IMG/VR virus record: IMGVR_UViG_3300015608_005401
Span: 10,686-74,685 of that record
Source: a virus
Lineage: Duplodnaviria > Caudoviricetes
Direction: 5' to 3' (one strand)
Length of the DNA stretch: 64,000 nt
Shown: piece by piece, positions 42,162 through 42,828 of the stretch
Layout: each line of letters opens with the position of its first letter
How positions within the stretch are numbered: the first letter of the stretch is position 1
Program-made: the position numbers and the translations under genes
Notes under the pieces: generated by a model
What the model was told of the DNA's origin: nothing
The model's database searches: none
What the model saw: only the letters and a program-made list of their open reading frames with translations

Positions 42162-42236
42162 ATGAAAACTATTAAGATTACATCGTCAAGTTCAAGTCGC
42201 TCGTCAAAAACGAGTGAGGTTCGATCGTATTCATAA
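42162..42236 (+). CDS. attenuator leader peptide L2 (MKTIKITSSSSSRSSKTSEVRSYS)
   Basis: 10 Ser and 2 Arg codons, upstream of Arg and Ser tRNAs. Confidence 0.85.
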   Translation: MKTIKITSSSSSRSSKTSEVRSYS

Positions 42237-42260
42237 TAGTCGTATAATAAGATATTTGTG

Positions 42261-42297
42261 AAACCCTCGAACTTCAAGTTTGAGGGTTTTTTGTTTT
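42261..42297 (+). terminator. attenuator terminator T2
   Basis: AAACCCTCGAACT-TCA-AGTTTGAGGGTTT then TTTGTTTT. Confidence 0.9.
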
Positions 42298-42302
42298 AAT
42301 AT

Positions 42303-42375
42303 GGTTCCATCGTTCAACTGGACAGGACACTCCGCTACGAACGGAGAAATGAGGGTTCGAATCCTTCTGGAACTA
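42303..42375 (+). tRNA. tRNA-Arg(ACG)
   Basis: Loop CTACGAA, canonical cloverleaf. Confidence 0.92.
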
Positions 42376-42380
42376 CAAAT

Positions 42381-42464
42381 GGAGAAGTAACTTAGCCGGC
42401 GCTAAGCACAGTCTTGAAAACTGCTGGTACCTTCGGGTATGGGGATCGACACCTCACTTCTCCG
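42381..42464 (+). tRNA. tRNA-Ser(TGA)
   Basis: Loop CTTGAAA, long variable arm, G73. Confidence 0.85.
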
Positions 42465-42469
42465 CAACT

Positions 42470-42552
42470 GGAAGTGGCCCGAATGGACGAGGAACTTGTC
42501 TTGAAAACAAGCGGCTGTAAAAGGTTTGGGGGTTCGATTCCCTTCGCTTCCG
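42470..42552 (+). tRNA. tRNA-Ser(TGA)
   Basis: GGAAGTG/CGCTTCC stem, loop CTTGAAA, G73. Confidence 0.88.
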
Positions 42553-42650
42553 CAAAATAGAATACTGGCAAAGTCCTGGCTGGACTGGTTCGAATCCATA
42601 AGCCATCAGCTAACCACTGATAAAGATTGGTAATCTTTGTATTCTTATTT

Positions 42651-42736
42651 GGAGAGTAAAGTAGCCAGGGTGCTACCACCGCCTGCTAAGCGAGTGGCAC
42701 GGTAAAACGTGTGAGTTTCGAATACTCTGCTCTCCG
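42651..42736 (+). tRNA. tRNA-Ser(GCT)
   Basis: Loop CTGCTAA, long variable arm, G73. Confidence 0.85.
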
Positions 42737-42742
42737 CTAATT

Positions 42743-42828
42743 GGAGAGTAATCTAATCGGGGTATTAGCCACGCCTGGAAAGCGTTGGGTGCGTTCATTC
42801 GCATGTGGTTCGAGTCCACTGCTCTCCG
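42743..42828 (+). tRNA. tRNA-Ser(GGA)
   Basis: Loop CTGGAAA, long variable arm, G73. Confidence 0.85.

Follow-up and report, generated by a model that had tools for sequence, protein, structure and literature searches.

Leader-peptide attenuation is the textbook mode of regulation of amino-acid operons. A component of the translation apparatus is controlled in this way by the pheM leader of Escherichia coli pheST (phenylalanyl-tRNA synthetase), which responds to the cognate charged tRNA. To our knowledge, the genes under the control of all described leader-peptide attenuators are amino-acid biosynthesis or synthetase genes, and in the described cases known to us any control of tRNA genes is exerted at the promoter. 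T-box riboswitches read uncharged tRNA directly, by means of one specifier codon and without an ORF. We know of no leader ORF with a terminator switch described before the tRNA clusters of phages T4 and T5, and a literature search found none before phage tRNA clusters.

The element studied here comes from a giant, uncultured lake phage. The window, i.e., the whole stretch of DNA that was analysed, comprises 64 kb of a 74.7-kb virus contig with a G+C content of 30%. A preliminary description of this DNA had proposed that a short, Ser-rich ORF and the terminator behind it attenuate transcription of one Arg and four Ser tRNA genes. In this study we document the anatomy of the element, its conservation, the preservation of its frame, its codon match and its predicted alternative folds. 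In our reading it is a ribosome-mediated (leader-peptide) transcription attenuator which senses the supply of the tRNAs under its control; this is a judgment from sequence, made without expression data, and we assign it a probability of about 0.72. The four rival explanations weighed below account for fewer of the observations. Support comes from the features that sequence can test, namely the reading frame, codon placement, alternative folds, absence of room for a promoter, and a codon-matched design that is repeated.

Leader ORF and Arg/Ser tRNA block

The leader and the genes downstream of it are as follows:

42162..42236, plus strand: leader ORF, 24 codons and a stop (ATG at 42162, TAA at 42234-42236)
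42183..42206, plus strand: putative regulatory run, codons 8-15 (five Ser, Arg, two Ser)
42260..42299, plus strand: intrinsic terminator, with a 14-bp stem (42260-42290), a 3-nt loop and a T-run
42303..42376, plus strand: tRNA-Arg(ACG), called by ARAGORN at default settings, 55 bits in Rfam
42381..42465, plus strand: tRNA-Ser(TGA) with a non-canonical T loop, called by ARAGORN at the relaxed threshold only
42469..42553, plus strand: tRNA-Ser(TGA), called by ARAGORN at default settings
42651..42737, plus strand: tRNA-Ser(GCT), called by ARAGORN at the relaxed threshold, with an orthologue in relatives
42743..42829, plus strand: tRNA-Ser(GGA), called by ARAGORN at default settings

The codon counts given in the preliminary description were exact: the 24 codons include ten for Ser (three TCG, four TCA, three AGT) and two for Arg (CGC and CGA). 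All five tRNA genes that it had named, Arg(ACG), two Ser(TGA), Ser(GCT) and Ser(GGA), were likewise found, two of the Ser genes only at the relaxed ARAGORN threshold or, in Rfam, below threshold; the first tRNA-Ser(TGA) (42381-42465) scored 43.8 bits against the Rfam tRNA clan, under the cut-off of that model. The leader ORF has the highest Ser content (42%, runner-up 32%) among the 340 ATG-initiated ORFs of 15-40 codons in the window. Ser and Arg, the amino acids of the downstream block, take up 12 of the 23 codons that follow the ATG, where the amino-acid usage of the phage predicts 2.7 (binomial P = 2.5e-6). The run of seven Ser codons and one Arg codon is located just before and inside region 1, where it overlaps strand 1 of the hairpin described below.

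Both Arg codons of the leader are of the CGN type decoded by the ACG tRNA, and they are rare: CGC and CGA account for 1% and 3% of the Arg codons in the long ORFs of the phage. AGA, which makes up 83%, is missing from the leader. Also missing from the leader in the window is TCT, the commonest Ser codon read by the Ser(GGA) tRNA. Three rare, GC-rich codons (CGC, TCG and CGA) lie inside helices and may owe their presence to structure, not to sensing.

The gap between the T-run and the first tRNA is 3-6 nt, which leaves no room for a separate promoter, so that the tRNA cluster can be transcribed only through the terminator. We dismissed GATATTTG (~42249-42256) as a possible promoter within the spacer, since relatives do not conserve it. 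At the other end of the block, a 103-codon ORF (42845-43156) without Pfam or PHROG match begins 16 nt 3' of the last tRNA-Ser. Neither a promoter nor a terminator lies between them, and the ORF may therefore share the transcript and the attenuator. Within the block, a 97-nt insert (42554-42650) separates Ser(TGA) from Ser(GCT); it contains a T-arm-like GGTTCGAATCC and complementary terminal hexamers. The insert had no Rfam or phage match, its fold was not significant (z = -1.6), and it is missing in the relative L001, where the two tRNAs adjoin.

Upstream promoter-like elements

Two candidate elements precede the leader:

42095..42128, plus strand: promoter-like element of Bacteroidota type, TTTG-N22-TAnnTTTGTA, predicted start at ~42133-42137, function inferred
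42147..42159, plus strand: TTAATATATAAAG motif, 2 nt upstream of the leader ATG, candidate phage-specific promoter or 5' element

Ten copies of the TTTG-N22-TAnnTTTGTA pattern were found in the window against 0.42 expected, every one on the plus strand. The pattern also occurs upstream of the putative attenuators 3 and 4, and the copy at 42095-42128 is kept in most homologues. It resembles the Bacteroidota promoter consensus; a Bacteroidota host is inferred from this resemblance alone. The DNA ligase was tried as a host marker and discarded, as it matched a single MAG contig that is itself probably phage DNA. Another match to the pattern (36461-36494) leads a stretch of ~400 nt without ORFs (36461-36885), which the preliminary description had listed as an orphan structured RNA; no Rfam match was found there.

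The TTAATATATAAAG motif is also present upstream of other leaders, of homing-endonuclease genes and of a tRNA-Met. In the window, TTAATATATA(A) occurs at 38013, 39202, 40271, 42042, 42148 and 50004 on the plus strand and at 51404 and 2668 on the minus strand, with variants at 55680, 56599, 62995, 57088 and 63570. It is placed a few to ~20 nt upstream of leader ORFs, homing-endonuclease genes and tRNA-Met, making it a candidate for a phage-specific promoter. If it is one, transcripts from TTAATATATA(A) would begin at or near the leader ATG.

Homologues and coding constraint

The neighbouring YqeY-like gene led to syntenic giant-phage contigs, including G001 (476 kb, 97%-complete), and pattern scans of viral and metagenome collections yielded 28 more loci, mostly from lake metagenomes. 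Altogether, 30 distinct homologues or versions of the element were obtained, one of them in the GenBank entry LR745206.1, a 634-kb sequence that carries the element and has no annotation. A strict scan, which could miss weak terminators, detected no cassette in L004-L014, more distant phages that also carry the YqeY-like gene. The Ser/Arg leader of relatives is immediately preceded by a tRNA-like gene whose anticodon region contains an insertion of ~50 nt (L001, 14801-14927; L002, ~16010-16137; L056, upstream of 275). This gene is missing in the window.

The ATG and an in-frame stop are conserved in 30 of 30 homologues, and the Ser/Arg run, the hairpin and the terminator are kept. The ORF is 75, 78, 81 or 105 nt long. 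From stop to terminator, the untranslated spacer takes 21 and 23-28 nt and has no triplet pattern. Frame and lengths were compared in 26 distinct homologues, with which the four others (L056, L057, the L044/L051 type and LR745206.1) agree. The length and codon choice of the Ser run vary, and its Ser-richness stays: in one clade codon 15 has changed from TCA to AGT, an exchange of all three bases that retains Ser. In the 3' part of the peptide non-synonymous changes (S/L, Y/C) have occurred and the nucleotides can still pair. Retention of Ser together with a pairable, non-synonymously changing 3' part is the pattern expected of a translated sensor and not of a functional peptide.

These data bear on the idea that the hairpin is a processing or stability signal of the tRNA precursor (an RNase entry site or a 5' protective stem) and that the ORF encodes a functional small peptide. 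It is true that tRNA precursors require 5' processing and that the ORF is conserved. However, a T-run behind a GC-rich stem is the hallmark of intrinsic termination, the replacements just described are tolerated in the 3' half of the peptide, and the leaders of distant relatives keep their composition and not their sequence, which makes this explanation very unlikely in our view.

Alternative RNA structures

Three structures upstream of or competing with the terminator were predicted:

42197..42217, plus strand: hairpin 1:2, 42197-42204 with 42210-42217, 8 bp and a 5-nt loop, in the MFE fold; candidate pause or protector hairpin
42168..42240, plus strand: composite hairpin of the whole ORF, in the MFE fold; predicted anti-antiterminator (masking structure)
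42215..42276, plus strand: predicted antiterminator, 42215-42236 with 42256-42276, an outer 10-bp helix and an inner helix that contains the stop codon

Hairpin 1:2 includes the 7-bp pairing (42198-42204 with 42210-42216) of the preliminary description, which is real, contains one G-U pair and extends to 8 bp with a flanking U-A. Across homologues 99% of its alignment cells are paired and its covariation score exceeds that of all 500 shuffles; additional compensatory pairs are found in L057 and LR745206.1. The masking function that had been attributed to this short hairpin does not hold: it overlaps the antiterminator strand by only ~3 nt, and both coexist when folded. Masking is instead predicted for the composite hairpin, where codons 3-8 pair with codons 20 to stop and hairpin 1:2 sits on top. 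The MFE structure of the window sequence consists of the composite hairpin and the terminator (z = -4.95), and most of the 26 homologues that were folded have a composite-like fold. Column-wise covariation in the outer ORF stem was not above that of shuffles.

It had also been proposed that the antiterminator strand pairs with the terminator arm. The pairing was recovered in a different register: 42215-42224 pairs with 42267-42276, which comprises the loop of the terminator and the 3' half of its 5' arm, and not with the AAACCC part. With region 1 masked and the 3' arm of the terminator absent, the predicted antiterminator has an energy of -21.0 kcal/mol; the terminator hairpin by itself reaches ~ -17 kcal/mol. 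With region 1 masked, the same architecture is the MFE structure in 28 of 28 homologues (-10.6 to -21.1 kcal/mol), and likewise in LR745206.1. One antiterminator pair that is G-C in the window is A-U in L056 and LR745206.1 and G-U in a third group. In L057 the terminator arm differs, and region 2 has changed to match it. In the homologue alignment, column-wise covariation was weak and not above shuffles for the antiterminator, and not above shuffles for the terminator. We attribute the weak signal to register-shifting indels, to the near-invariance imposed on region 2 (part of which was fixed by the homologue search pattern) and to the register shift in L057.

Ribosome footprints were simulated along the leader. 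The antiterminator could form when the A site was at codons 10-15, and it did not form once the A site had reached codon 16 or any later position up to the stop. In this model the switch falls exactly at the Ser/Arg run. When the full terminator is present, the terminator fold is favoured at equilibrium (-25.7 vs -21.0 kcal/mol). The decision must therefore be a kinetic one, as it is in classical attenuators. For ribosome-free RNA that still lacks the 3' arm, the MFE structure keeps the antiterminator beside a shortened hairpin 1:2. Termination in the untranslated state would therefore hinge on the order of folding, with the ORF hairpin forming first.

Alternative terminator and antiterminator folds would also be at hand in a T-box-like switch made of RNA only, in which tRNAs bind the codon run directly and translation is not needed; the run is indeed complementary to the anticodons of the downstream tRNAs. 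Such a sensor has no use for a conserved ATG, a conserved stop or indels in triplets only, and the exchange at codon 15 alters three bases yet preserves the amino acid. Moreover, the run holds several different codons and not one specifier, and no T-box or other riboswitch was matched in Rfam at E up to 1. We regard an RNA-only switch as highly improbable.

Paralogous units

The same cassette of promoter, short ORF, terminator and tRNA block heads four other blocks in the window, for a total of five units, all of which the preliminary description had listed. The others are:

ATG at 37730: His/Lys/Phe/Trp-rich leader core; block of His, Phe, Trp and Lys tRNAs
ATG at 55860: YYYEGE in the leader core; block of Glu and Tyr tRNAs
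ATG at 56617: Ile/Gly/Ala codons, twelve in a row; block of Ile(TAT), Ala and Gly tRNAs
ATG at 63010: Asn-rich leader that also has Met, Leu, Thr and Val; block of Asn and more tRNAs, cut by the contig end

Seven units of the same layout and with different amino acids were found in each of the complete relatives, G001 and LR745206.1. In both, the Asn block runs on with Leu, Val, Thr, Ile and Met tRNAs, and two extra units are present, one with a Gln-run leader before three tRNA-Gln genes and one with a Pro/Asp/Gln leader before Asp and Pro tRNAs. In LR745206.1 the units (L060-L063) are located at 341900-344400, 364200-369400, 387200-390500 and 406200-408300.

For the seven units, the amino acids of each block are most enriched in its own leader, and of all 5040 permutations the true assignment of leaders to blocks gives the highest summed cognate amino-acid enrichment. 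Each of the seven leaders holds a segment complementary to the 5' arm of its own terminator, and the true pairing of leaders with terminator arms has the lowest summed duplex energy, again of all 5040 permutations.

Two explanations without regulation can be weighed against these results. In the first, a constitutive leaky terminator sets a fixed low level of tRNA transcription or ends an upstream unit, and the ORF has no regulatory effect. A strong, conserved terminator, weak covariation in the antiterminator and the lack of expression data are compatible with this. It leaves unexplained why the frame is retained through indels, why leaders match the amino acids of their own blocks at seven loci and why each leader contains a complement of its own terminator arm, and we consider it unlikely. 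In the second, the leader is a chance or degenerate sequence, e.g., a decayed tRNA fragment that happens to be open. The GGTTCGA of the leader does resemble a T-arm, and similar fragments occur 3' of other tRNA blocks (~39185 and ~40255). This origin was rejected on the basis of 30 distinct homologues with conserved frame and structure, the fold z of -4.95 and codon matching repeated at seven loci; the conservation data already contradict it, and it can practically be discounted.

Several further features of the tRNA regions were observed. Just upstream of three tRNA-Lys genes and 3' of an HNH gene, the stretch 39913-39972 holds an ORF of nine codons, four of them for Lys, and a 10-bp hairpin lacking a T-run; this could be a minimal unit or what is left of one. 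In the Tyr/Glu unit, a tRNA-like gene of ~95 nt (56005-56100) that was called by neither ARAGORN nor Rfam separates the terminator from the first tRNA-Glu, and in G001 a similar sequence follows the terminator. Two tRNAs have the class-II shape with a long variable arm, which is unusual for their identities: 63292-63377 with anticodon GAT (Ile) and 56187-56273 with TTC (Glu). Relaxed ARAGORN settings gave, with low confidence, a tRNA with anticodon TTA, which reads the stop TAA (10528-10618), adjoining a tRNA-Ser (10410-10499). The long ORFs of the contig are open under table 11. The tRNA blocks are interspersed with homing-endonuclease genes (38045-38683, GIY-YIG; 39227-39892, HNH; 40298-41278, HNH-like; 57118-57861, SegE-like GIY-YIG), as in the tRNA regions of T4 and T5. 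Some of these genes are missing in relatives.

Proposed mechanism

It is by inference that we take the leader to be translated, its translation to be coupled to transcription, transcripts to end at the T-run and the outcome to respond to tRNA supply. Transcription would start from the promoter near 42095-42128, and the 24-codon leader would be translated while RNA polymerase proceeds. If Ser-tRNA(UGA/GCU) or Arg-tRNA(ICG) were scarce, the ribosome would stall at codons 8-15. The stalled footprint would cover the 5' strand of the ORF hairpin and region 1, allowing leader nt 54-75 to pair with the 5' arm and loop of the terminator. With the antiterminator in place, the polymerase would read into tRNA-Arg, the four tRNA-Ser genes and perhaps the 103-codon ORF at 42845-43156. 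Under fast decoding, the ribosome would reach the stop codon and cover the antiterminator strand, the terminator would form and transcription would end at the T-run. In the absence of translation, the ORF would probably fold on itself (42168-42240), again leading to termination. The phage thus described probably makes its Arg and Ser tRNAs only when ribosomes read Ser and Arg codons slowly.

It is possible, though we hold this more tentatively and at somewhat less than even odds, that the Ser/Arg unit belongs to a sensor array with several channels (seven units in the complete relatives), which together cover most amino acids and measure the host tRNA pool by codon family. If so, the array would switch on only the matching block of phage tRNAs, a demand-driven answer to decay of host tRNAs or to tRNA-cleaving defence nucleases. 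On this reading it would also be the first example of tRNA genes that are themselves autoregulated through leader-peptide attenuation. A unit in which the tRNA pool gates transcription of its own genes would directly link supply and demand in the translation apparatus. In a phage, such a unit bears on why large phages carry many tRNAs and when these are used, and it predicts induction of phage tRNAs when specific host tRNAs run short, e.g., once the host has been shut off or its tRNAs have been cut by anticodon nucleases. Each amino-acid group has a short sensor of its own, a modular design that could be used as a codon-specific biosensor. Many lake metagenomes contain the system, as does the public sequence LR745206.1, where it is not annotated.

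Comparison with known systems

At the gathering threshold, Rfam returned tRNAs only. With E up to 1, the one non-tRNA family that matched the full length of the element was His_leader (RF00514), with 26 bits against a cut-off of 49 (E = 0.059), which is below membership; the match is an architectural resemblance only. No other leader family and no T-box was matched in 42050-42850 at this setting. We found no published account of a tRNA-gene target, of self-referential logic, of a phage setting or of a codon-matched array of paralogues. The class of mechanism is classical; the target, the self-referential logic, the phage setting and the array are new as far as we found.

The element resembles the enterobacterial leaders trpL, hisL, leuL, thrL, pheL and ilvL in having a short ORF, a run of regulatory codons and a hairpin in or next to these codons. 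It shares with amino-acid-operon leaders the use of rare codons and the competition of an antiterminator with an intrinsic terminator, decided by ribosome position, which is predicted here. Like the thr and ilv leaders it is multivalent, in this case for Ser and Arg. A choice between terminator and antiterminator that depends on the state of tRNA, as proposed here, and a target among translation-related genes are also known from T-box riboswitches; unlike these, the phage element has an ORF under frame constraint. The pheM leader is a single unit on a bacterial chromosome that controls a synthetase gene, whereas the phage units control tRNA genes. In contrast to the amino-acid-operon leaders, the element belongs to no sequence family, recurs as five to seven paralogous units with the amino acids shared out between them, and is a phage element placed before five tRNA genes, not enzymes, so that the molecule sensed and the product are of the same kind.
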